From: an uncultured Candidatus Saccharibacteria bacterium | GTDB taxonomy: Bacteria > Patescibacteriota > Saccharimonadia > Saccharimonadales > JBBQAJ01 | Length of the DNA stretch: 64,000 nt | Assembly: GCA_964593805.1 (NCBI GenBank) | Contig: CAZQHP010000001.1 | Span: 91-64,090, forward strand | Reading direction: 5' to 3' | Shown: piece after piece, positions 2,452 through 63,731 of the stretch | Layout of the letters: each line of letters opens with the position of its first letter | Position numbering within the stretch: the first letter of the stretch is position 1 | The notes under the pieces: model-generated | Seen by the model: the letters and a program-made list of their open reading frames with translations, nothing else | Told to the model about the DNA's origin: nothing | Database searches by the model: none | Made by a program: the position numbers and the translations under genes

Positions 2452-2484
<33 letters not shown>

Positions 2485-5160: not shown

Positions 5161-5297
5161 AATTGCTTTCACTATACCATAAGCTTTTTACAGTTACCAT
5201 CGTAAAACTATGAGCAGAATTTTCAAATAGCAATTTTCAATTTTCCAGATCGTAGTAGTTAGTTTTCATTGTCTGGTATCTGATATTTGAAAATTGA

Positions 5298-11476: not shown

Positions 11477-12568
11477 ATGAGTTTATCAATCGGGATTGTC
11501 GGGTTGCCAAATGTCGGTAAGTCTACGCTGTTTAATGCGCTGACAGACGGTGATATTCTGGCTGCCAATTATCCTTTTGCAACCATTGAACCAAATACTG
11601 GCATTGTGCCCATACCAGACGAACGGCTGCAAAAACTGGCAGATGTATACAAGACAAAAAACATCGTCCCCGCGACGGTTACATTTGTAGACATTGCCGG
11701 CCTGGTTGCCGGCGCCAGCCAAGGCGAAGGCCTGGGCAACCAATTTCTAGCAAATATTCGTAGTTGCAATGCCGTCTGCCATGTTGTCCGAGCTTTTACG
11801 GACGATAATGTCCTGCATGTTGACGCCAAACATAATCCTCAGAAAGATATCGAGGTTATTAATACCGAGCTGGCGCTCGCGGACCTCCAGACCGTAGAAA
11901 AACGCTTGCCCCAAAGCGAAAAAATGGCCAAAGCTGACCCCAAACTCAAGCCCCAGGTAGATGCACTTCTCTGGGCACGAGATATCCTAAACGACAGCGT
12001 GCCTTTATTTGCAGCTCCCTCACGACTTGCAGCTCACGACTTGCTTCTTCAGGAGCTTCAGCTCCTGACGGCAAAGCCGACTATATATTTATTTAACGTA
12101 GATGAAGAAACGCTGGCCGATGACGCCAAAAAATCTCAGCTGGCTCAGCTAGTCGCACCTGCGGAAGCAGTTTTTGTCTGTGCAAAGTTAGAAAGCGAAC
12201 TAAAAAGCCTGGACACTGCAGACCGCGTAGAATTGCTAGGCAGCTATGGGGTTCAAGAATCCGGGCTGGTCCAATTAACCCACGCCGCCTACGATACGCT
12301 CGGCCTGCAGAGTTTTCTGACTGCCGGCGAAAAAGAAGTCCGGGCCTGGACAATCCCAAAAAGTGCAACCGCTCCGCAAGCCGCCGGCGTAATTCATGGC
12401 GATTTTGAGCGCGGCTTTATAGCCGCCCAAATTGTAGATTATGATGACCTGATAACGGCTGGTTCAGAAGCGGCCGCTAGGAGCTCTGGCAAAGTACGCA
12501 CCGAAGGCAAAGATTACGCAATGCGCCCCAACGATGTAGTAGAATTCCGTTTCAACGTATCAAAATAG
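11477..12568 (+). CDS. ychF: Ribosome-binding ATPase YchF
   Basis: GIVGLPNVGKSTLFNALT P-loop, ..VDIAGLV.GAS.GEGLGN.FL.., and a C-terminal TGS-like ..DFERGFI.A.. Confidence 0.95.
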   Translation: MSLSIGIVGLPNVGKSTLFNALTDGDILAANYPFATIEPNTGIVPIPDERLQKLADVYKTKNIVPATVTFVDIAGLVAGASQGEGLGNQFLANIRSCNAVCHVVRAFTDDNVLHVDAKHNPQKDIEVINTELALADLQTVEKRLPQSEKMAKADPKLKPQVDALLWARDILNDSVPLFAAPSRLAAHDLLLQELQLLTAKPTIYLFNVDEETLADDAKKSQLAQLVAPAEAVFVCAKLESELKSLDTADRVELLGSYGVQESGLVQLTHAAYDTLGLQSFLTAGEKEVRAWTIPKSATAPQAAGVIHGDFERGFIAAQIVDYDDLITAGSEAAARSSGKVRTEGKDYAMRPNDVVEFRFNVSK

Positions 12569-12620
12569 CTGTTAGCTGTTAGCTGTTAGCTGTTAGCTGT
12601 TAGCTGTTAGCTGTTAGCTA
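12567..12620. repeat. Tandem heptanucleotide array (AGCTGTT) x7.7 filling the whole convergent intergenic spacer
   Basis: Direct reading. The array begins within the ychF TAG stop and ends 2 nt before the stop of the convergent gene at 12623. Confidence 0.97.
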
Positions 12621-16001: not shown

Positions 16002-16023
16002 ACAAAATTTCTCCGAAATTTTG

Positions 16024-16058
16024 AGCTATCAGCTGTCAGCTGTCAGCTCTTAGCTAGT
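16024..16058. repeat. Degenerate tandem heptamer array (AGCTNTC-like) x5
   Basis: agctatc agctgtc agctgtc agctctt agctagt, between the ssb stop and the efp start. Confidence 0.9.
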
Positions 16059-26894: not shown

Positions 26895-27614
26895 TGTTTT
26901 GGAGAAATCTATCTCTGTTGGTGACTGTGCATATGATACGTCAAATTCGCCTACTTGGGTGCGGCGGAGGGCGGTCATGTAGGCGCTAGTTCCTAGTTCT
27001 TTGCCTATATCTTCTACCAAACTGCGGATATACGTGCCGGAAGAAACTTTGGCGGTGAATTTCACCTCTGGATATGCATAATCCACATCAGAAATGCTGT
27101 AAATCGTCACCCTTCGAGGCTCAAGCACCACTTCTTTGCCCTCTCTGGCTAATTTGTAAGCCCGTTGGCCATTTACTTTGACGGCGCTGAACTTGTGCGG
27201 CGTTTGCATGATTTCGCCCTGGAACGACCCCAAGACTGCCATAAAAGCTTTTTCTGATGGTTTTTCACCAGATACAATGGTCTTTTCACCCTCTTCATCG
27301 CCAGTTGTGCTGGTTTGGCCCAGTTTCATAGTCACTTCGTATACTTTGTCTAGTTTGCTAAACTCATGCGCCCGTTTGCAGTAACTGCCAAGGAGAATTA
27401 CCAAAAGTCCGGTTGCGAGCGGATCCAGAGTGCCGGCGTGGCCAACCTTCACCTTCCGTGAAGGAGTACTGAGTCGAGAGTCCTGAGTCGAGAGTTTTTC
27501 GCTCCGTACTCCGTACTCTGTACTCTGTGACTGGCGCAAAAGTCCCCTGACTTTTGCGACTACGTCAAACGACGTCCAGCCAGACGGCTTATCAATCAGT
27601 AAAATTCCATCCAC
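26880..27614 (-). CDS. truB: tRNA pseudouridine-55 synthase TruB, with a repeat-encoded insertion
   Basis: GTG start. GILLIDKPSGWTSFDVV.. and catalytic ..GHAGTLDPLATGLLVILLG. An extra ~21-24 aa lies between these motifs. Confidence 0.92.
   Translation of the reverse strand: MDGILLIDKPSGWTSFDVVAKVRGLLRQSQSTEYGVRSEKLSTQDSRLSTPSRKVKVGHAGTLDPLATGLLVILLGSYCKRAHEFSKLDKVYEVTMKLGQTSTTGDEEGEKTIVSGEKPSEKAFMAVLGSFQGEIMQTPHKFSAVKVNGQRAYKLAREGKEVVLEPRRVTIYSISDVDYAYPEVKFTAKVSSGTYIRSLVEDIGKELGTSAYMTALRRTQVGEFDVSYAQSPTEIDFSKTLTNK
27469..27531. repeat. 7-nt-periodic tract inside truB (9 units, 63 nt)
   Basis: ctgagtc gagagtc ctgagtc gagagtt tttcgct ccgtact ccgtact ctgtact ctgtgac. It encodes ..SQSTEYGVRSEKLSTQDSRLS.. 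Confidence 0.9.
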
Positions 27615-29477: not shown

Positions 29478-29834
29478 ATGCCCATTATCAAATCAGCTAA
29501 AAAGCGTGTTCGAGTTGCCCGCAAGGCTACCGTGCGCAATGCCAAAACCAAGCGTAATCTGCGCCTGGCTCTGAAATCTTTTCAGTCTTCAGCAAGCGGC
29601 AGTACGCACAGCAAGGCCCAAAGCGCCCTAGACAAAGCTGGCAAAAAAGGCTTGCTCCACAAGAACAAAATTGCCCGCAAAAAGCGCCAGCTGGCCGCGG
29701 CCGCCAAAAAAGCCGGCGTAAAGACCGCTGGAATCGCCAAAGCCAAAAAAGTCGTTACAAAGAAACCAGCCGTAAAGAAAGCAGCTCCAAAGAAGGTAGT
29801 CGCCAAAAAGAAACCAGCAACAAAGAAAAAATAA
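29478..29834 (+). CDS. rpsT: 30S ribosomal protein S20 with a Lys/Ala/Pro-rich C-terminal extension
   Basis: MPIIKSAKKRVRVARKATVRNAKTKRNLR.. is the canonical S20 start. The last ~45 aa are AKKA/PKK repeats. Confidence 0.92.
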   Translation: MPIIKSAKKRVRVARKATVRNAKTKRNLRLALKSFQSSASGSTHSKAQSALDKAGKKGLLHKNKIARKKRQLAAAAKKAGVKTAGIAKAKKVVTKKPAVKKAAPKKVVAKKKPATKKK

Positions 29835-31252: not shown

Positions 31253-32161
31253 TCACGCCTTTTGGCATTTGGGGCAAGTGTGGGTGCCGCGGCCGGCTAC
31301 TCGAGTCTTTGTAATTATTGTACCGCAGCGTGGACACTCTTGACCCTCACGGCGGAATACACGCGCAAAACTGAGGTAGCTGCCCTTTTTGCCTTCCGCA
31401 TTCACATAATTTCTATCTGTTGAACCGCCTTTTGCTATAGCTAGATTTAGGACAAATTGAAGTTTGGTAAATAATTTGTATATTTTGACTTTGGAAAGAT
31501 TTTTTACCAATGTAGCCGGGTGGATTTTGGCGTCCCATAGGCTTTCGTCGGCGTATATATTGCCTACGCCCGCTATCACGGTTTGGTCCAAAAGTGCGGC
31601 TTTAATATTTGTATTCGGCCGGCGTAAAAGCCGCTCCTGAAAGGCTTTTTTGGTAAAATCAGCAGCCAATGGCTCGGGTCCAACGCGTCTAAAAAAGTCT
31701 ATGTTTGGCACCTCGATGGTGGGCAAAAGTTTCATCCAGCCAAATTTGCGCTGGTCGTTGAAGAAAAGTTCGGAGCCGTCTGTGAAGGTAATAATTACCC
31801 TAGTTGATTTGTCGGGTAAGCCTCCGACCAAAGATTCACTCGGGTGTCCAGCCCCAAACCTTTCTTCAGCTGTCAGCTGTCCGCTACTAGCTGTTAGCTT
31901 GTGCGCTTCGCGCACATAAACCATTTGTCCGGTCATTTTGAGATGACTCACGAGTGTGTGTCCGGAAGACAAATCAATGAGCAATATTTTTGCACGCCGC
32001 CGGACACCAATGATTTTGGAACCCACCAAAAACGCCTTTACGTCCGCCTCAGCGTTTGGAAATGATTTGGCCCAGTCGTGCGTAATGCCAGCAATGGCCT
32101 TACCAATAACAAATTTATTTAGTCCTGTTCGGACCGTTTCAACCTCAGGTAGTTCTGGCAT
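31253..32161 (-). CDS. mutM: Formamidopyrimidine-DNA glycosylase (Fpg/MutM), with a repeat-encoded insertion
   Basis: MPELPEVETVR N-terminus, H2TH region, and C-terminal zinc finger CPRCG...CPKCQ. Confidence 0.93.
   Translation of the reverse strand: MPELPEVETVRTGLNKFVIGKAIAGITHDWAKSFPNAEADVKAFLVGSKIIGVRRRAKILLIDLSSGHTLVSHLKMTGQMVYVREAHKLTASSGQLTAEERFGAGHPSESLVGGLPDKSTRVIITFTDGSELFFNDQRKFGWMKLLPTIEVPNIDFFRRVGPEPLAADFTKKAFQERLLRRPNTNIKAALLDQTVIAGVGNIYADESLWDAKIHPATLVKNLSKVKIYKLFTKLQFVLNLAIAKGGSTDRNYVNAEGKKGSYLSFARVFRREGQECPRCGTIITKTRVAGRGTHTCPKCQKA
31867..31901. repeat. Tandem heptamers inside mutM
   Basis: cagctgt cagctgt ccgctac tagctgt tagcttg. It encodes ..HKLTASSGQLTAE.. Confidence 0.9.
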
Positions 32162-37823: not shown

Positions 37824-40534
37824 TACAATTCGCCCCAGTTTTTGCCGGTGGTGGCGTCTACGGTTAGCTTTACAGGGAGTTTGTGGACGTTTTCCATGGT
37901 GTCTTTGAGTAGTTTGGCGGTCGCTTCGGCTTCTTTTTCATCACATTCTACAATTAGGGAGTCATGAATTTGCAGCAGAATGCGAGCTTCTCCCGCAGGA
38001 GCAGGAAGTAAGGAGTAGGAAGAAGGGTGGGCTGTATTTTTGCCTTGCTCCTTGCTCCTTGCTCCTTGCTCCGCAAAAGCATCTAGCTTTTGCTGGACGT
38101 GAACCATGGCTAGTTTCATGATGTCGGCCGCTGTTCCCTGGAACGGCACGTTTACGGCGGCCCGTATAGCGGATTCTCGTACGACGAAGTTGCTGGAGTG
38201 CACGTCTGGCGTGGGGCGGCGTCGGCCAAACAGCGTTTCCACGTAGCCGTCTTTGCGCGCCTGCTCTTTGACGGATTCTATGTAGCCCAACAGTTTAGGA
38301 CGGACTTCAAAGTATTTGTCTATAAAGTGCTTGGCTTGTTCGTATGTCATGCCGGTAGCGGCTACCAAACCGTGCGTGCTTAGGCCGTACATGACACCAA
38401 AATTCACTACTTTGGCATCGCGGCGCATATTTTTGGTCACGTCTTGCTCTTCTCTGTCATAAATCAGCGCCGCGGTGGCAGTATGGACGTCTACGTCGCG
38501 GTTAAACATGTCTATCAGGTTGTCGTCTCCGCACAAATAAGCCGCCAGGCGCAGTTCAAACTGGCTGTAGTCGGCGCTAACCAGCATTTTGCCCGGTCCG
38601 GCTACAAAAGCCGTACGGATTTGCCGGCCCAGATCTGTTTTGACAGGAATGTTTTGGAGGTTCGGGTCATTGGAACTCAGCCGGCCAGTTTGGGCTACTG
38701 TGAGCGCAAAGGTGGTATGGACGCGGGAGTTTTCGTCTACCATAGTCGGCAAAGTATCTACGTAGGTGTTTTTGAGCTTGGTGACTTCGCGGTACTGAGT
38801 TATGAAATCAATAATTGGGTGCGCTTCCCGCAGTTTGACCAGTTCGCTGGCGGCGGTTGAATAACCGGTTTTGCCTTTTTTGATATTGGCAGTAGGCAAA
38901 TTTAGTTTGTTGAACAATATATCTGCCAGCTGGGCTGGAGAGGCTATGTTAAACTCTTGGTCGGCGTAGCCGTAAATTTGTTGTTCAAGGTCGGAAACGG
39001 CGTCATTTAACTGTTCTGCCATGAGCCCTAGGTAGTTGGTATCCAGCTGTATGCCTTCGTATTCCATGCGCGCCAGCACGGGGATAACTGGAAATTCAAT
39101 GTCTTTGGCCAGCTTGGCAACTTTTGGCATACCAGCCAGATCTTTCGCTTGCTCCTTATGTAACATGGCGATTAAACCGATAATTTCTGATCCTCTTGCC
39201 GCGTATTCTTCGGTACTTAAATCTTCTATTGAACCCTCGAAACCAATGTCTTCAGCAGCGAGAGTTTGCAAAGAAACTTCTCTACGCAAGCTATTTATAA
39301 GGAAAGCGCCAACCATCACATCGTGCTCCACGTGCGGCAGCTTTATGCCCAGTCCAATCAGTACTTTCAAGGTGTTCTTTATGTCGTAGCCAATAACAGA
39401 GTTAAGGGTTGAGAGCAGAGGGTTGAGAGCTTTAGCCGATACCTTTGAAAGATCAATAGCGTATGTTTTCTTTCCATCCTTGCTTACAAGTAATATCAGA
39501 GGATTTTGACCGTGTTTACCAGCGGAGCGGCTGTCTATAAAAATGTTTTTTGCGTCTTTAAGATCAAGTTTTGCCAAATCAGCATCGCTGCTAATCAAAC
39601 TGCTGGCGCTGCCATTGTGCTCAAATACATTTCGTTCTTTATGTTGCTCTTGCAGCTGCATTATATCCGGCAGTTGGCGGACTAGGCTGCGGAATTCCAG
39701 TTTTTGCAAAATGTCACGGATGCGTTCGGGGTGGGCTTTGGTGCCGTCTACTTCTTTCAGGTTCAGTTTTATGGGCGCATCTGTCCATATGCTGGCCAGT
39801 TTTTTACTCAGGTACGCCATGTCTTTGCCAGCTTCTAATTTTTTGCGAGTAGTTTCTTTTATCAGCACCAGATTTTCATACACTTTGTCTAGTGTGCCGT
39901 ACGCTTTAAGCAATTCAATCGCACCCTTTTCGCCTATTCCAGGCACCCCAGGGATGTTGTCTGAACTATCGCCTTTTAGCGCTTTTAGATCCAGAAACTG
40001 TGAAGCGTTTATGCCGTATTTGGCCTCAAAACTTTCCGGATGAAACAGTTCTATGTTGCTGAGTCCTTTTTTAAGTGCATATACGCTCACGTGCCAGTCA
40101 ACCATCTGCAACATATCTAAATCAGACGTTACGAGCATGGTCTCAATGTCTTTTGAGGTTGCTTGTATAGCAAGAGTCCCCATAATGTCATCGGCCTCAT
40201 AATCATCCAGCTCATATAAAGGCCAGCCAAAAGCATCTAACAGGTCATGAAGTATAGGAATTTGTTCATAAAAATCTGGCGGCGGCGGTTTGCGCCCGGC
40301 TTTGTACTCAGGGTACAGTTCCAAGCGTTTGCGAATGTTGGTTTTGGGCTTGTCCCACGCCACGCAGACATAATCCGGCTTGAGACGTTTTATAACTTCT
40401 AGCGCCATAGTGGCAAAACCAAACACGCCGCCAGTGGGTGTACCGTCTTTGGTACTCAGATTTGGCATGGCATAGTAACCACGGTAAAAGACTGACTTGC
40501 CATCAATAATCGCTAGTTTTTTGCGCTCCGCCAT
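37823..40534 (-). CDS. polA: DNA polymerase I
   Basis: 5' nuclease domain (..DNIPGVPGIGEKGA..), a 3'-5' exo-like region, and polymerase motifs ..DYSQFELR.., ..RRDAKVVNFG..YG.., ..QIHDSLIVE.. Confidence 0.95.
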   Translation of the reverse strand: MAERKKLAIIDGKSVFYRGYYAMPNLSTKDGTPTGGVFGFATMALEVIKRLKPDYVCVAWDKPKTNIRKRLELYPEYKAGRKPPPPDFYEQIPILHDLLDAFGWPLYELDDYEADDIMGTLAIQATSKDIETMLVTSDLDMLQMVDWHVSVYALKKGLSNIELFHPESFEAKYGINASQFLDLKALKGDSSDNIPGVPGIGEKGAIELLKAYGTLDKVYENLVLIKETTRKKLEAGKDMAYLSKKLASIWTDAPIKLNLKEVDGTKAHPERIRDILQKLEFRSLVRQLPDIMQLQEQHKERNVFEHNGSASSLISSDADLAKLDLKDAKNIFIDSRSAGKHGQNPLILLVSKDGKKTYAIDLSKVSAKALNPLLSTLNSVIGYDIKNTLKVLIGLGIKLPHVEHDVMVGAFLINSLRREVSLQTLAAEDIGFEGSIEDLSTEEYAARGSEIIGLIAMLHKEQAKDLAGMPKVAKLAKDIEFPVIPVLARMEYEGIQLDTNYLGLMAEQLNDAVSDLEQQIYGYADQEFNIASPAQLADILFNKLNLPTANIKKGKTGYSTAASELVKLREAHPIIDFITQYREVTKLKNTYVDTLPTMVDENSRVHTTFALTVAQTGRLSSNDPNLQNIPVKTDLGRQIRTAFVAGPGKMLVSADYSQFELRLAAYLCGDDNLIDMFNRDVDVHTATAALIYDREEQDVTKNMRRDAKVVNFGVMYGLSTHGLVAATGMTYEQAKHFIDKYFEVRPKLLGYIESVKEQARKDGYVETLFGRRRPTPDVHSSNFVVRESAIRAAVNVPFQGTAADIMKLAMVHVQQKLDAFAEQGARSKEQGKNTAHPSSYSLLPAPAGEARILLQIHDSLIVECDEKEAEATAKLLKDTMENVHKLPVKLTVDATTGKNWGEL
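37994..38070. repeat. 7-nt-periodic tract inside polA ending in (CCTTGCT) x4
   Basis: ..gcaggaa gtaagga gtaggaa gaagggt .. ccttgct ccttgct ccttgct ccttgct. It encodes ..EQGARSKEQGKNTAHPSSYSLLPAPAGEA.. just upstream of polymerase motif C. Confidence 0.85.
39405..39432. repeat. 14-nt (2x7) direct repeat inside polA
   Basis: agggttgagagca gagggttgagagct. It encodes ..KALNPLLSTLNS.. Confidence 0.8.
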
Positions 40535-44724: not shown

Positions 44725-44803
44725 AGCGTACAGCTTTTAGCTGACAGCGTACAGCATAAGAAGTTAGAACTAACCGCTACAAGCTAACTGCTGACAGCTG
44801 GTA
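44725..44803. repeat. Degenerate 7-nt-periodic tract (AGCGTAC/AGCTGAC/CCGCTAC-type units) filling the dnaG-divergent intergenic region
   Basis: agcgtac agctttt agctgac agcgtac agcataa gaagtta gaactaa ccgctac aagctaa ctgctga cagctgg. It ends at a TACAAT box. Confidence 0.8.
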
Positions 44804-44814
44804 CAATAATGCTT

Positions 44815-50672: not shown

Positions 50673-52325
50673 CTACATCCTGTCTGGCGCGGGAATGTTG
50701 AGAAGTTCCAGACCGCTTTTTAGCGTGTCGGCATAAGCTTGAACTAAATTCAAACGGACAGCTTGGCGCGGGTCGTCCAGCACGCGGTTGTTTTCATAAA
50801 AACGGTTAAAAACCTGCGCTAGTTCGTATAAATACGTGCAGACATGATGCGGCATGAGTTCCTGTACTGCCCTGTCCACCACCTCTGTATATTCACCAAT
50901 CTTCCTTAGCAGGCTTCTTTCATCCTTTTGGAGTTTTTCTGAAGACTTTGGACTTTGGACTTTGGACTTAGCGAGAATACTTCTCGCCCTGGCGTGCGCG
51001 TACTGCAGGTACGGCCCGCTGTTGCCCTCCAGTGCCACTGATTCTGCCGGATCGTAAATGACGTCTCCGCCCATGCGATTTTTTAATAGTGCGTATTTGA
51101 CTGCCGCCAGCGCCGTAGTTTCGTCGTCTTTGCCAGTAGTTTTTTGGTTGGCCGCGCGAGCCGCGTCAATCACATCAATGGCGCGCAGTATGTTGCCCTT
51201 GCGGCTGCTCATTTTCACACCGCCAGCCAGTTTCACCATGCCGTGAGTTAGGTGCGTAGTGGCTGTTGACAATTCAGGTGCGAATTGCTCAATCGCTTTT
51301 AACACCACAGCCATGTACTGGGCTTGTTCGTTGCCGGTTATGACGACTGATTTGTCAAAGTTGTAGTCGCGCTTTTTGGCCACAATCAGCCCCACATCTT
51401 TGGCTTCGTAGGTTGGCAAACCTTCGGAGTTTACAAAAACGCGAGTGTGCAAATCATGGTCTTCGCCTTTGAACACAATTGCGCCCTCCGACTCCACGAA
51501 AACATCTGGAATGTGCTCTTTAACAGTTTGGACCCCCAGCTCTGCGACTTCGCTTTCCGGGTAGTATTTTTCAAAACTACTGCCTATGCGCTTATAGAAT
51601 TCGTCGAAATAGTCATAGCTCCACTGCCGGCATGTCCAATATATTTGCGCAAACGCAGATTCTTTGTCGCCGTCTGCGTGCAGCTGGTATACGCGTTTAT
51701 TCAGTGTGGTAATTTCGGCCTTTGCGGCTTCGTTTTCATCGTAAGCAGTCGTACCTTCTATGTAAGCCTTGGTCAGCCATTCGGCATGGTTTTCAATCGC
51801 CTTGAGCCCGTCTGGATTTTCACCGCCGAGCTCTCGCAAAATGGCCCACATGGTTTTGCCAACGTGCAGACCAACATCGCCGCCAAAGTTCACGCGGTGG
51901 ACTTTGGCTCCGGCCGCTTCCAACAAAGATGCTATCCCGTCCCCCACCACGGAGGTATACAAATGGCCAGCATGCAGGACTTTGAATGGGTTCGGGTCGG
52001 AATATTCCGCTACGACTTCTTTGCCTGCCAAGACGCGCATTGGCTTCTGAGCCGCAAGCTTAGTCAGAGCTGCGTCTGTCAACGTTAAATTTATAAACCC
52101 CGGGCCAGCGATATCTGCGGACACAATGCTGGGATGTTTCAGAGCCGATTTAAGGGTTTCGGCAACTTCGCGCGGGTTTTTATCCAGCCGTTTGCCCAAC
52201 TGAAGGGCAACGCTGGTAGCGTAATCGCCGAATTGCTCGTCGGGGCGCGTCAAATCCACCTCAACGTCAACGTTGAACAATTCTTTGCACGCCCCCGCGA
52301 TTGCCTGCTCCAGTTCTTGCCTCAT
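50673..52325 (-). CDS. argS: Arginine--tRNA ligase, with a repeat-encoded insertion
   Basis: ..YSDPNPFKVLHAGHL.. (HIGH-type), ..MSSRKGN.. (KMSK-type), and a C-terminal DALR anticodon-binding region. Confidence 0.95.
   Translation of the reverse strand: MRQELEQAIAGACKELFNVDVEVDLTRPDEQFGDYATSVALQLGKRLDKNPREVAETLKSALKHPSIVSADIAGPGFINLTLTDAALTKLAAQKPMRVLAGKEVVAEYSDPNPFKVLHAGHLYTSVVGDGIASLLEAAGAKVHRVNFGGDVGLHVGKTMWAILRELGGENPDGLKAIENHAEWLTKAYIEGTTAYDENEAAKAEITTLNKRVYQLHADGDKESAFAQIYWTCRQWSYDYFDEFYKRIGSSFEKYYPESEVAELGVQTVKEHIPDVFVESEGAIVFKGEDHDLHTRVFVNSEGLPTYEAKDVGLIVAKKRDYNFDKSVVITGNEQAQYMAVVLKAIEQFAPELSTATTHLTHGMVKLAGGVKMSSRKGNILRAIDVIDAARAANQKTTGKDDETTALAAVKYALLKNRMGGDVIYDPAESVALEGNSGPYLQYAHARARSILAKSKVQSPKSSEKLQKDERSLLRKIGEYTEVVDRAVQELMPHHVCTYLYELAQVFNRFYENNRVLDDPRQAVRLNLVQAYADTLKSGLELLNIPAPDRM
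50944..50971. repeat. Tandem heptamers (GACTTTG) x3 plus one degenerate unit inside argS
   Basis: gactttg gactttg gactttg gacttag. It encodes ..KSKVQSPKS.. Confidence 0.95.
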
Positions 52326-62651: not shown

Positions 62652-63731
62652 ATGATAATTCTTGGCATAGAAACCAGCTGTGATGAAACGGCTTGCGGGA
62701 TTGTGCAGAACGGCAAAAAACTTTTGGCAAATGCAGTGCTTTCCAGCATGGATTTGCATGCCGTATACGGCGGCGTAGTCCCGGAAATCGCCGCCAGAAG
62801 CCACATTGAAGCGATTATCCCTGTTATTCAGCAAGCTTTAGGGCAAGCAAACTGTACTTGGGACGACATTGACGGAATTGCGGTAACCTACGGTGCTGGG
62901 CTGGGCGGTTGCCTGCTGGTGGGCGTCATGACCGCCCGCACGCTGGCAATTGCCAAAAACAAGCCCATGTACGCCGTCAACCACGTTGAAGCGCACGCTT
63001 ATGCCAACTTCCTAACGGAAGTAGCTAACAGCTTACAGCTGACAGCTGACAGCTATAAATTACCGCATTCCGCACCTTCCTTTCCCATGTTAGGGCTAAT
63101 AGTCAGTGGCGGGCATTCGCAGCTGGTCCTCTGGCGCAATCACTTTGATTACACCTTGCTAGGGCAAACGCAAGACGACGCTATAGGTGAAGCGTTCGAC
63201 AAAGTCGCCAAAATACTTGGTCTCCCCTACCCTGGCGGCCCCAGTCTGGAGACATTTGCCAAAAACGGCGACCCAAATGCCTTTAGTTTCCCCAAAGCCA
63301 AGATGAGCAACAGATACGACTACTCATTTAGCGGCATCAAAACAGCCGTTTTGCGCGCTGCCCAGAAATTAATAGGTGAAAACCACGACTTCCCTTCCCA
63401 TAAGCTTTCAGAACGGCTCTCAGAGGCTCAGAAAGCAGACATTGCGGCCAGCTTCCAGCGTGTGGCCGTGGAAACAGTAGTAGACAAGACGTTACAGGCC
63501 TATGAGGAGTTCAATCCACGAAGCGTTGTCATCGGCGGCGGCGTAGCCGCCAGCCCGGAACTTCGCCGCCAATTAGCCGAACGCCTTCCCATCCCTATCG
63601 AATATACAGACATGAAACTATGCACCGACAACGGCGCCATGATAGCCACCCTCGGCTGCTTCAAAGCTATGAATAATCAAGAAAAAGCCGACCCCTACTC
63701 TCTAGAAATCGCCCCAAATTTATCAATGTAA
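62652..63731 (+). CDS. tsaD: tRNA N6-adenosine threonylcarbamoyltransferase TsaD, with a repeat-encoded insertion
   Basis: MIILGIETSCDETA.. and ..NHVEAH...VSGGHS.. The ATG at 62652 lies 7 nt after TATACT. Confidence 0.93.
   Translation: MIILGIETSCDETACGIVQNGKKLLANAVLSSMDLHAVYGGVVPEIAARSHIEAIIPVIQQALGQANCTWDDIDGIAVTYGAGLGGCLLVGVMTARTLAIAKNKPMYAVNHVEAHAYANFLTEVANSLQLTADSYKLPHSAPSFPMLGLIVSGGHSQLVLWRNHFDYTLLGQTQDDAIGEAFDKVAKILGLPYPGGPSLETFAKNGDPNAFSFPKAKMSNRYDYSFSGIKTAVLRAAQKLIGENHDFPSHKLSERLSEAQKADIAASFQRVAVETVVDKTLQAYEEFNPRSVVIGGGVAASPELRRQLAERLPIPIEYTDMKLCTDNGAMIATLGCFKAMNNQEKADPYSLEIAPNLSM
63021..63055. repeat. Tandem heptamers (ACAGCTG-type) x5 inside tsaD
   Basis: gtagcta acagctt acagctg acagctg acagcta. 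It encodes ..VANSLQLTADSY.. between the HxxxH region and the VSGGHS motif. Confidence 0.92.

Follow-up and report, generated by a model that had tools for sequence, protein, structure and literature searches.

A tandem repeat with a unit length not divisible by three is as a rule purged from genes, since every slip moves the reading frame, which raises the question why a DNA-repair gene of a Candidatus Saccharibacteria bacterium contains a run of seven-nucleotide units and whether the encoded peptide or the DNA itself is conserved. The gene is fpg (mutM), and it lies in a stretch of 64,000 nucleotides of an uncultured member of the Saccharimonadales; this stretch, called the window below, constitutes our entire genomic view of the source bacterium. 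An earlier note, made from the letters alone, had described heptamers inside fpg and proposed that a single repeat family colonises both coding and non-coding DNA. We consider it probable, at roughly 0.58, that the fpg segment is the core of an in-frame heptamer array of 42 nt which belongs to a genome-wide population of hairpin-forming arrays originating by slippage or template switching, and that the encoded peptide is a passenger. The features of the fpg locus are as follows.

31253..32161, minus strand: fpg/mutM, host of the repeat; open reading frame (ORF) of 302 aa, with Pfam domains, PDB homologs and a 100% identical database protein (P0001, on a contig of 776,748 bp)
31865..31900, minus strand: in-frame array of AGCT-core heptamers, AAGCTAA CAGCTAG TAGCGGA CAGCTGA CAGCTGA A, encoding KLTASSGQLTAE (residues 88-99)
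31901..31915, minus strand: hairpin at the 5' edge, GTGCGC-GAA-GCGCAC, 15 nt, codons VREAH (residues 83-87), stem kept in 12 lineages
31859..31915, minus strand: complete variable loop of 19 codons, VREAHKLTASSGQLTAEER; relatives most often have 5-6 codons
31799..31858, minus strand: Saccharimonadales-specific Fpg segment FGAGHP...DKSTR (residues 102-121), adjoining the insert and non-repetitive

All three Pfam domains of Fpg (Fapy_DNA_glyco, H2TH and zf-FPG_IleRS) scored above their cut-offs, and comparison with the MutM structure 1l1t gave E = 1.6e-55. The protein starts with MPELPEVE, in which PELPEVE contains the catalytic Pro2 and Glu3, and ends with a four-cysteine zinc finger, CPRCG...CPKCQ (CxxC...CxxC). 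The forward strand of the window reads cagctgt cagctgt ccgctac tagctgt tagcttg at 31867-31901; sequence, ORF and Pfam analyses agree with the earlier note in placing this array inside Fpg/MutM, upstream of RFGAGHPS. Its codons AAG CTA ACA GCT AGT AGC GGA CAG CTG ACA GCT GAA encode KLTASSGQLTAE directly upstream of that motif. The array consists of five AGCT-core heptamers in a decayed state, only two adjacent units being identical, and its 7-nt copies are arranged head to tail as in heptanucleotide repeats of the long simple sequence repeat (LSSR) or short tandemly repeated repetitive (STRR) type. It forms the core of a net insertion into Fpg of 14 codons, i.e. 42 nt, the length of six heptamers.

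Tandem repeats were called with Tandem Repeats Finder (TRF), which reported period 7 at 31866-31885 in fpg and at nine further sites of the window. Phasing was scored by a sliding lag-7 self-identity scan of 28 positions, in which the fpg array reached 19-20/28; the window contained 9 such segments where a first-order Markov null predicted 0.09, and lags from 4 to 11 otherwise gave 0-1. The hexamer AGCTGT is by itself not significantly frequent in the window (43 seen, 34.5 expected). The signal is the tandem 7-nt phasing and not the abundance of the hexamer, and a chance origin of the array is ruled out by this phased signal despite the non-significant hexamer count.

For comparison, 80 ortholog loci were taken from a species-level genome collection, nearly all of them titled Candidatus Saccharibacteria, Saccharimonadales or Patescibacteria. 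The spacing between KMTGQxVx and FGAGHP amounts to 19-22 residues in 60 of these 80 species, which have no insert and a loop of 5-8, mostly 5-6, residues; in the other 20 species and the window it amounts to 25-75 residues. All 21 inserts are in frame and without stops, and therefore they are translated and not spliced out. Among 120 database homologs of Fpg, 291 aa is the most frequent length, and differences in length are localised at the single insert site. Solved MutM structures align to residues 1-81 and 118-301 only, leaving residues 82-117 unaligned. An AlphaFold2 model of Fpg based on 87 homologs (mean pLDDT, the predicted local distance difference test, 87.5) predicts the insert in the loop joining strands 78-83 and 101-105, with residues 92-97 below 50 and the block 91-100 averaging 51. 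The insert is thus modelled in a permissive surface loop of a beta-hairpin, predicted to be disordered. The adjoining segment of about 20 residues, FGAGHPxxSLxGxLPDKSTR, is common to all Saccharimonadales Fpg and has no counterpart in solved MutM structures; it appears to be a lineage-specific structural addition to Fpg.

Heptameric phasing is also present in inserts of other species. Lag-7 identity of the insert DNA reaches 0.46-0.60 in eight lineages, compared with about 0.25 at other lags, namely in the window, L043 and L060 (AGCT type), L069 (TCAAATA), L001, L045, L076 and, weaker, L021. A 19-codon loop of the pattern V[RG]xA[HD]KLxAxSxxLxAEER was found in 13 lineages. Loops of the AGCT type comprise 12 codons (P0040, VRAAHKRTAEER), 19 codons or 26 codons (P0059) and thus differ by steps of 21 nt. 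Length steps of seven codons were considered as a general rule (p = 5e-6 with the AGCT type included), but they amount to 9/41 without it (p = 0.12) and are claimed for the AGCT type only.

Outside the loop, Fpg identity is 0.707 among carriers of the insert and 0.708 between carriers and other species. The closest Fpg relatives of carriers, up to 84% identical, are without the insert, and the C-terminal half of PolA agrees, its nearest relatives (up to 89% identical) also being without it. A single clade of carriers is ruled out by these nearest-neighbour identities in Fpg and PolA. By protein comparison, carriers of the AGCT-type insert are polyphyletic, and the insert site has consequently undergone many gains, many losses, or both; the neighbour-joining tree of Fpg is a weakly resolved single-gene tree.

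Which level is conserved can be read from codon usage in the 12 carrier lineages available for DNA-level comparison, the peptide-level recurrence referring to 13 lineages. Lineages are non-independent samples, yet they are treated as independent in the statistics given here. The conserved loop residues in the 12 carriers are exactly those encoded by the AGCT cores, with one codon each. Lysine in the cores is encoded by AAG in 16/16 cases (background 36%), serine by AGC in 11/11 (29%), alanine by GCT in 19/24 (24%) and leucine by CTN in 21/21 (69%; 21 is a recount, the codon test itself having used 22), while alanine outside the cores is encoded by GCT in 0/9 cases against the same background of 24%. 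Third-position identity is 0.66 in the 11-codon repeat versus 0.38 across the remaining gene. The spacers are lineage-specific: (CAA/CCA)x2 in L084, AGCCAAC x2 followed by AGCTTAA x2 in L043, and GAC in the window, L085 and L089. Their homogenisation within L084 and L043 is consistent with turnover of units.

The hairpin at the 5' edge has a stem of 6 bp and a loop of 3 nt and spans the first five insert codons. Variants of its stem in other lineages are GTCGGC-NNN-GCCGAC, GTCCGC-AAT-GCGGAC and GTGCCT-TAT-GGGCAC. Over 12 lineages 97% of the stem cells are paired, compared with 15-43% in slid control registers; three of the six stem pairs show double compensatory changes, and none of 500 shuffles matched the observed score. 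This covariation couples the synonymous third base of the Val codon with the first base of the His/Asp codon, and of the four stem cells that are not Watson-Crick pairs, three are G-U on the sense strand. At 9/21 insert-bearing loci versus 1/59 others, a hairpin of 4 bp or more begins at this Val codon. These data show the AGCT cores and the flanking hairpin to be conserved as nucleotides and not as peptide. The covarying hairpin fits either selection on structure or repeated fold-back origins copying the local flank. The condition which the earlier note had named as refutation, a peptide conserved in distant Fpg proteins lacking repetitive DNA, did not apply: the peptide is absent from solved MutM/Fpg structures and all 13 recurrences have AGCT cores at 7-nt spacing. 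The ortholog alignment it had proposed showed the insert to be lineage-restricted, 60 of the 80 Saccharimonadales species being without it.

Two boundary hairpins were seen in the fpg insert of L029 (about 2416-2500, AAGAAAY family), GTTGCC-GA-GGCAAC on its 5' side and GCAAC-TGA-GTTGC on its 3' side. They are related to each other and look like a duplicated palindromic boundary.

A perfect (AGCTRAC)n array reaches AGC-TGA or AGC-TAA in all three frames because 7 and 3 have no common factor. In fpg the unit at the stop phase is TAGCGGA, read as AGC GGA, and the corresponding codon in relatives is GGA, TCA, TCT, TCG, TTA, CAT or CTG; in tsaD it is TTA or TAT. In-frame stops are thus avoided in coding copies, as had been suspected, but this is a necessity for any ORF and therefore adds little independent support.

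The fpg array has counterparts throughout the window, where heptamer arrays lie in frame in fpg, tsaD, truB, polA and argS and at five intergenic sites. The following were characterised.

12566..12619: perfect (TAGCTGT)x7.7 array that occupies the whole 54 nt separating the convergent ychF (+) from a phosphoribosyltransferase gene (-)
16024..16056: AGCT-type array AGCTATC AGCTGTC AGCTGTC AGCTCTT AGCT in the gap from the stop of ssb to the start of efp
44725..44810: two inverted arms of AGCT-type heptamers, degenerate, separating the divergent dnaG from the next gene; fold z -2.6
63023..63054, plus strand: AGCT-type array in frame inside tsaD, encoding VANSLQLTADSY; TRF, Pfam, fold z -2.0
27464..27525, minus strand: two inverted heptamer arrays (GAGTACN type and complement) in frame in truB, encoding QSTEYGVRSEKLSTQDSRLSTP; fold z -2.6
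37997..38072, minus strand: perfect (GAGCAAG)x4.3 with an inverted degenerate arm, in frame in the polymerase domain of polA; TRF, Pfam, fold
50944..50969, minus strand: perfect (AAGTCCA)x3.7, in frame in the variable linker of the argS DALR domain (KSKVQSPKS); TRF, Pfam
2452..2484: perfect (CCGCTGA)x4.7 array, intergenic, with a different unit and the same period

Units of the AGCTGAC/AGCTAAC form occur in fpg, in tsaD and at 16024 and 44725, and the form at 12566 is AGCTGTT. The array at 16024 reads AGCTGTC on the plus strand and AGCUGAC in mRNA sense, and all four orientable AGCT arrays (16018-16046 on the minus strand, 44725-44810, fpg and tsaD) read AGCURAC in mRNA sense. The fold of the fpg insert has z -2.7 against shuffles, within a range of -2.0 to -4.0 across fpg, truB, polA, tsaD, 12566 and 44720. 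At 12566, where the RNA fold reaches -28.3 kcal/mol (z -2.6), the TAG stop of ychF is formed by the first three bases of the array. The intergenic arrays which the earlier note had placed at 12567, 16024 and 44725 were recovered as AGCT-core tandem heptamers at 12566, 16024 and 44725, and its claim of one family shared by coding and non-coding DNA stood (fpg and tsaD; 12566, 16024 and 44725), with replication in L084, L060 and L043. Mobility, which the word colonises implies, is one possible origin; an identical pattern would be expected from hairpin-forming units that expand in situ with a bias.

The arrays in tsaD, truB and polA also lie at positions where most orthologs differ. Orthologs of tsaD mostly read TETSLPGY at the array position, and among the loci recovered by a motif filter on the metagenome loci (20/80) heptamer-type tsaD inserts were found only in L090 and L120; the peptide ANSLQLTA appears in the unrelated TsaD as well. 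The truB arrays lie between VRGLLRQS and KVKVGHAGTLDP and are missing from most orthologs, as is the polA array, which directly precedes the QIHDS motif and folds with -38.1 kcal/mol (z -4.0). A net insertion in argS is unsupported, E. coli ArgRS being equally long in the linker. The flanks of the polA insert, TTTGCGGAG...CTCCTGCGGG (window 38073-38080 and 37990-37996), are common to the window and the distant species L045 (2186-2275), and the units inside differ, GAGCAAG in the window versus AGAAAGM and CACTCCT in L045. The arrays of polA and argS are perfect four-unit tracts in essential genes, in which a slip by one unit would shift the frame.

The census of arrays was extended to the window and the 80 loci, 1.38 Mb in total. 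Arrays with at least three copies numbered 56 for period 7, compared with 13 for period 6, 5 for period 8 and 11 for period 9, an excess of period 7 as it is typical for LSSR/STRR repeats. Of 61 heptamer arrays, 29 are located deep in ORFs, a category that covers 76% of the sequence, and another 29 lie between genes, these classes being approximate as coding status was set by ORF length alone; the intergenic enrichment (29/61 arrays in about 24% of the sequence) is likewise shared with LSSR/STRR repeats. The 61 arrays comprise 49 canonical units. A palindromic 4-mer is contained in the units of 34/61 arrays (36% expected, p = 0.0015) and a palindromic 6-mer in those of 12/61 (10.7% expected, p = 0.03), the cores including CAGCTG, AGATCT and TCTAGA.

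Genomes with an Fpg insert are also rich in heptamer arrays outside fpg, with 38 in 425 kb versus 16 in 934 kb, an approximately 5-fold difference (Mann-Whitney p = 3e-4). For AGCT arrays of at least three units outside fpg, the numbers are 8 in 178 kb of carrier loci versus 4 in 1,286 kb of the rest. Other genomes, too, have one unit family at several sites: in L084, CAAAGCT units occur in fpg as (CNAAGCT)x5 and, inverted, in polA; fpg and truB of L060 share AAGCTNA units; AGCT units are common to fpg and polA of L043; and the AAGAAAY-type units of the L029 fpg recur in three arrays nearby. Each of the positions in truB, polA and tsaD is an insertion hot spot that is occupied in some species only, with a patchy distribution, and frequently by the genome's own heptamer family. 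Within this collection, the comparisons show a population of heptamer arrays in a subset of Saccharimonadales.

Related repeats occur in phages. Three or more AGCTRAC units are present in thirty viral contigs, and several of the temperate-phage contigs encode a terminase, a portal protein, a major head protein, an endolysin and an integrase. AGCT-rich phage contigs hold 15-18 arrays per 10-14 kb (17-18 in L188 and L197), arranged as palindromes in nearly every intergenic gap, with (AGCTGTT)~4.6, a GC-rich centre GCGCGCTGCGG... and (AGCTAAY)~5, with GGAGG and a start codon often coming next. In L188 and L197 these palindromes fold with -58 to -89 kcal/mol (z -5.4 to -6.3). L188/L198 correspond to IMGVR_UViG_3300028833_000521 and L197/L189 to IMGVR_UViG_3300021255_003533; L171, L190 and L192 belong to the same group of contigs. 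The temperate-phage contigs with AGCT palindromes have a GC content of 0.55-0.58. The best annotated relative of the terminase belongs to an unverified human-faecal phage in which heptamer arrays are absent.

According to the reading that we favour, the arrays would owe their origin and turnover to replication slippage or to template switching, in which slipped intermediates are presumably stabilised by self-complementary units (CAGCTG, AGATCT, TCTAGA and others) or by inverted arms. Birth and death of units would homogenise the units of each lineage, a form of concerted evolution. Within genes, survival would be limited to versions that preserve the frame and are free of AGC-TRA stops, and this filter would lead to AGCT-type loops of 12, 19 and 26 codons, differing by 21 nt. 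The peptide would be a passenger in a disordered surface loop dispensable to Fpg. Several observations weigh against this reading. The insert has the same length, frame and flanks in 13 lineages that do not cluster, and the AGCT family occupies at least five sites in 64 kb as well as fpg plus polA or truB elsewhere; slippage alone does not account for either, nor for the compensatory covariation in the 5' hairpin, which is not part of the repeat. With just two perfect units in the fpg array, slippage at this site should nowadays be rare, and copy-number polymorphism was not seen in the one case available, the tsaD array being of equal length in its sole close relative L170 (83% DNA identity). 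Finally, the seven-codon length steps lose significance outside the AGCT type (9/41, p = 0.12).

[quoted passage not shown] One unit family at several coding and non-coding loci of one genome, the polyphyletic distribution of an fpg insert of constant length, frame and flanks, the hairpin or palindrome architecture, the polA flanks TTTGCGGAG...CTCCTGCGGG common to the window and the distant L045, and the AGCT-heptamer palindromes with GC-rich centre across intergenic gaps of temperate-phage contigs all point in this direction; as with RPEs and MITEs, the arrays occur in frame in unrelated housekeeping genes and in intergenic DNA, and in-frame colonisation of genes by RPEs provides a precedent (PMC10969869). 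We nevertheless regard such an element as unlikely. A full-length consensus is lacking, with 49 units among 61 arrays and copy number and arm layout varying from site to site, and perfect arrays such as (TAGCTGT)x7.7 resemble in-situ expansion. Inverted arms and a flank-complementary hairpin are present at the inserts, but a target-site duplication was not recognised, and neither the combination of terminal inverted repeats with target-site duplication nor a transposase was identified in the 64-kb window, a genome-wide transposase search not having been made. The closest annotated relative of the phage contigs is without heptamer arrays. Somewhat less probable still is a selected structure in mRNA or single-stranded DNA, which might pause translation, serve as an RNase site, affect stability or bind a protein, with the peptide as a by-product and the intergenic copies as terminator-like or 5'-untranslated region elements. 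It would explain the stem paired at 97% over 12 lineages with three of six pairs doubly compensated and 0/500 shuffles, the synonymous-site conservation of the AGCT cores with the covarying third base of the Val codon, the three of four non-Watson-Crick cells that are G-U on the sense strand, the AGCURAC sense of 4/4 orientable arrays and the array at 12566 that exactly spans the gap between convergent genes. However, such a structure is missing from this site in most relatives, the units vary widely from site to site, and complementary arms would also result from fold-back (template-switch) origins or from survivorship beside a slippage-promoting hairpin. The arrays gave no match in Rfam and no terminator-like call, as they lack a T tail, which rules out a known RNA family or an intrinsic terminator. 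Both the mobile element and the selected structure are compatible with an origin of the arrays by slippage or template switching, and we treat them as live alternatives that do not exclude it.

Two further explanations fare worse. The recurrence of V[RG]xA[HD]KLxAxSxxLxAEER in 13 lineages and the equivalence of a 21-nt period with a period of seven residues could suggest an adaptive feature of Fpg, for example a short heptad-like helix or a partner-binding peptide, with the DNA periodicity being incidental. This is very improbable: the conserved residues are those encoded by AGCT cores, with one codon each despite synonymous choices, ANSLQLTA also occurs in the unrelated TsaD, and the loop is modelled as disordered and absent from the nearest relatives. 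A conserved protein loop is contradicted by the ortholog alignments, the PDB alignment and the codon-level tests. Least credible of all is a contingency locus in which heptamer slippage toggles mutM and thereby a reversible mutator state. Gain or loss of one unit would indeed shift the frame of this DNA-repair gene, and heptamer tracts drive phase variation in some pathogens according to the literature, but a long perfect tract is lacking, no more than two adjacent units being identical, none of the 21 inserts breaks the frame, and similar arrays lie in the essential genes polA, argS and tsaD, where switching off would be lethal.

Heptanucleotides were described as the commonest class of LSSRs in bacteria, and polymerase slippage, linked to the polymerase footprint, was proposed as their origin, with units that are multiples of three expected in genes (Mrazek 2007, as reported in PMC4679880 and PMC4692102). 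As far as these reports describe them, LSSRs resemble the arrays found here in their tandem 7-nt units, the excess of period 7, dispersed occurrence, intergenic enrichment, presence in sporadic lineages and proposed slippage origin. In contrast, half of the arrays described here are in frame in conserved housekeeping enzymes even though 7 cannot be divided by three, and their units are enriched in palindromes or placed in inverted arms. Full-text searches returned nothing specific on heptamer repeats in Saccharibacteria or Patescibacteria, and Saccharimonadales, which belong to the candidate phyla radiation (CPR), were not found in literature searches for such repeats. The TAACTGA repeats of Beggiatoaceae, Cyanobacteria and Bacteroidetes and the cyanobacterial STRR heptamers (MacGregor 2015, PMC4679880) likewise place one heptamer family at many intergenic sites, often beside start or stop codons. 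The forward orientation of TAACTGA stops all three frames and thereby constrains copies in ORFs, and the few ORF copies encode peptides with a period of seven residues (PMC4679880). Those copies, however, are mostly located at protein ends or in hypothetical proteins, unlike the arrays that occupy recurrent hot-spot loops in the interior of Fpg, TruB, Pol I and TsaD; moreover, the unit is different and several unit families coexist in our case. The GGGAATC/GGGGAYT repeats of Xanthomonas and Nostoc (Rehm 2015, PMC4692102) are heptameric arrays as well, about 90% of them intergenic and near the 3' end of the upstream ORF, with array lengths that differ between related species; they are G-rich and form G-quadruplexes, whereas the present arrays are based on AGCT or other palindromes, form hairpins and are frequently coding. 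RPEs and intragenic MITEs (PMC10969869) share with them the palindromic character and the occurrence between genes and in frame in unrelated housekeeping genes, where the added peptide is tolerated, but RPEs are about 150 bp long and have a family consensus and a conserved peptide, in contrast to arrays of 20-90 nt with variable unit and copy number and no consensus over the length of an element.

The arrays provide a concrete case in which processes at the DNA level create and maintain protein insertions: perfect and decayed 7-nt arrays lie in fpg, polA, argS, tsaD and truB of a symbiont with a tiny genome, in the same loops across many species, and the chromosomal arrays are linked to very similar intergenic palindromes of phages. 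They point to a CPR lineage with a mutational burden, or a mutational mechanism, of its own, and they are a warning for annotation, as lineage-specific loops of CPR proteins may be passengers of repeats. One can tentatively speculate that some Saccharimonadales and temperate phages contain an undescribed class of self-propagating elements composed of a hairpin plus a heptamer array, which would be inserted or regenerated at specific sites, including in-frame positions in loops of essential enzymes, and kept at the level of nucleic acid by compensatory changes in the stem and conservation of synonymous sites, possibly with the help of a dedicated enzyme or of replication by template switching. 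If true, these would be a CPR counterpart of RPEs with a new architecture.

Some further repeats were noted. AGCTGACAGCT contains CTGACA, a 5/6 match to the -35 hexamer, and a promoter scan lists CTGACA-17-CAAAAT upstream of efp, the total of promoter-like sites not being above chance. The truB locus of L060 (6035-6508) contains four arrays, namely an inverted pair of AAGCTCA/AGCTTTC and two direct ACAGGTT-type arrays about 190 nt apart. Intergenic A/T-rich heptamers with an AATT core (AATTTTC, CAATTCA, TTGAAAA, TCAATTA) are found in L014 (13227-13686), L045 (13207-13638), L060 (10617-10660) and the window (5218-5245); those of L014 and L045 are similarly placed, about 3 kb downstream of fpg, and may mark a conserved regulatory or replication-related region. 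Among tandem repeats of three copies or more, period 15 ranks second in frequency (28 arrays in 1.38 Mb), exemplified in the window by CAAAGAAACCAGCCC x2.5 at 29758-29794, and these repeats may code for pentapeptides.

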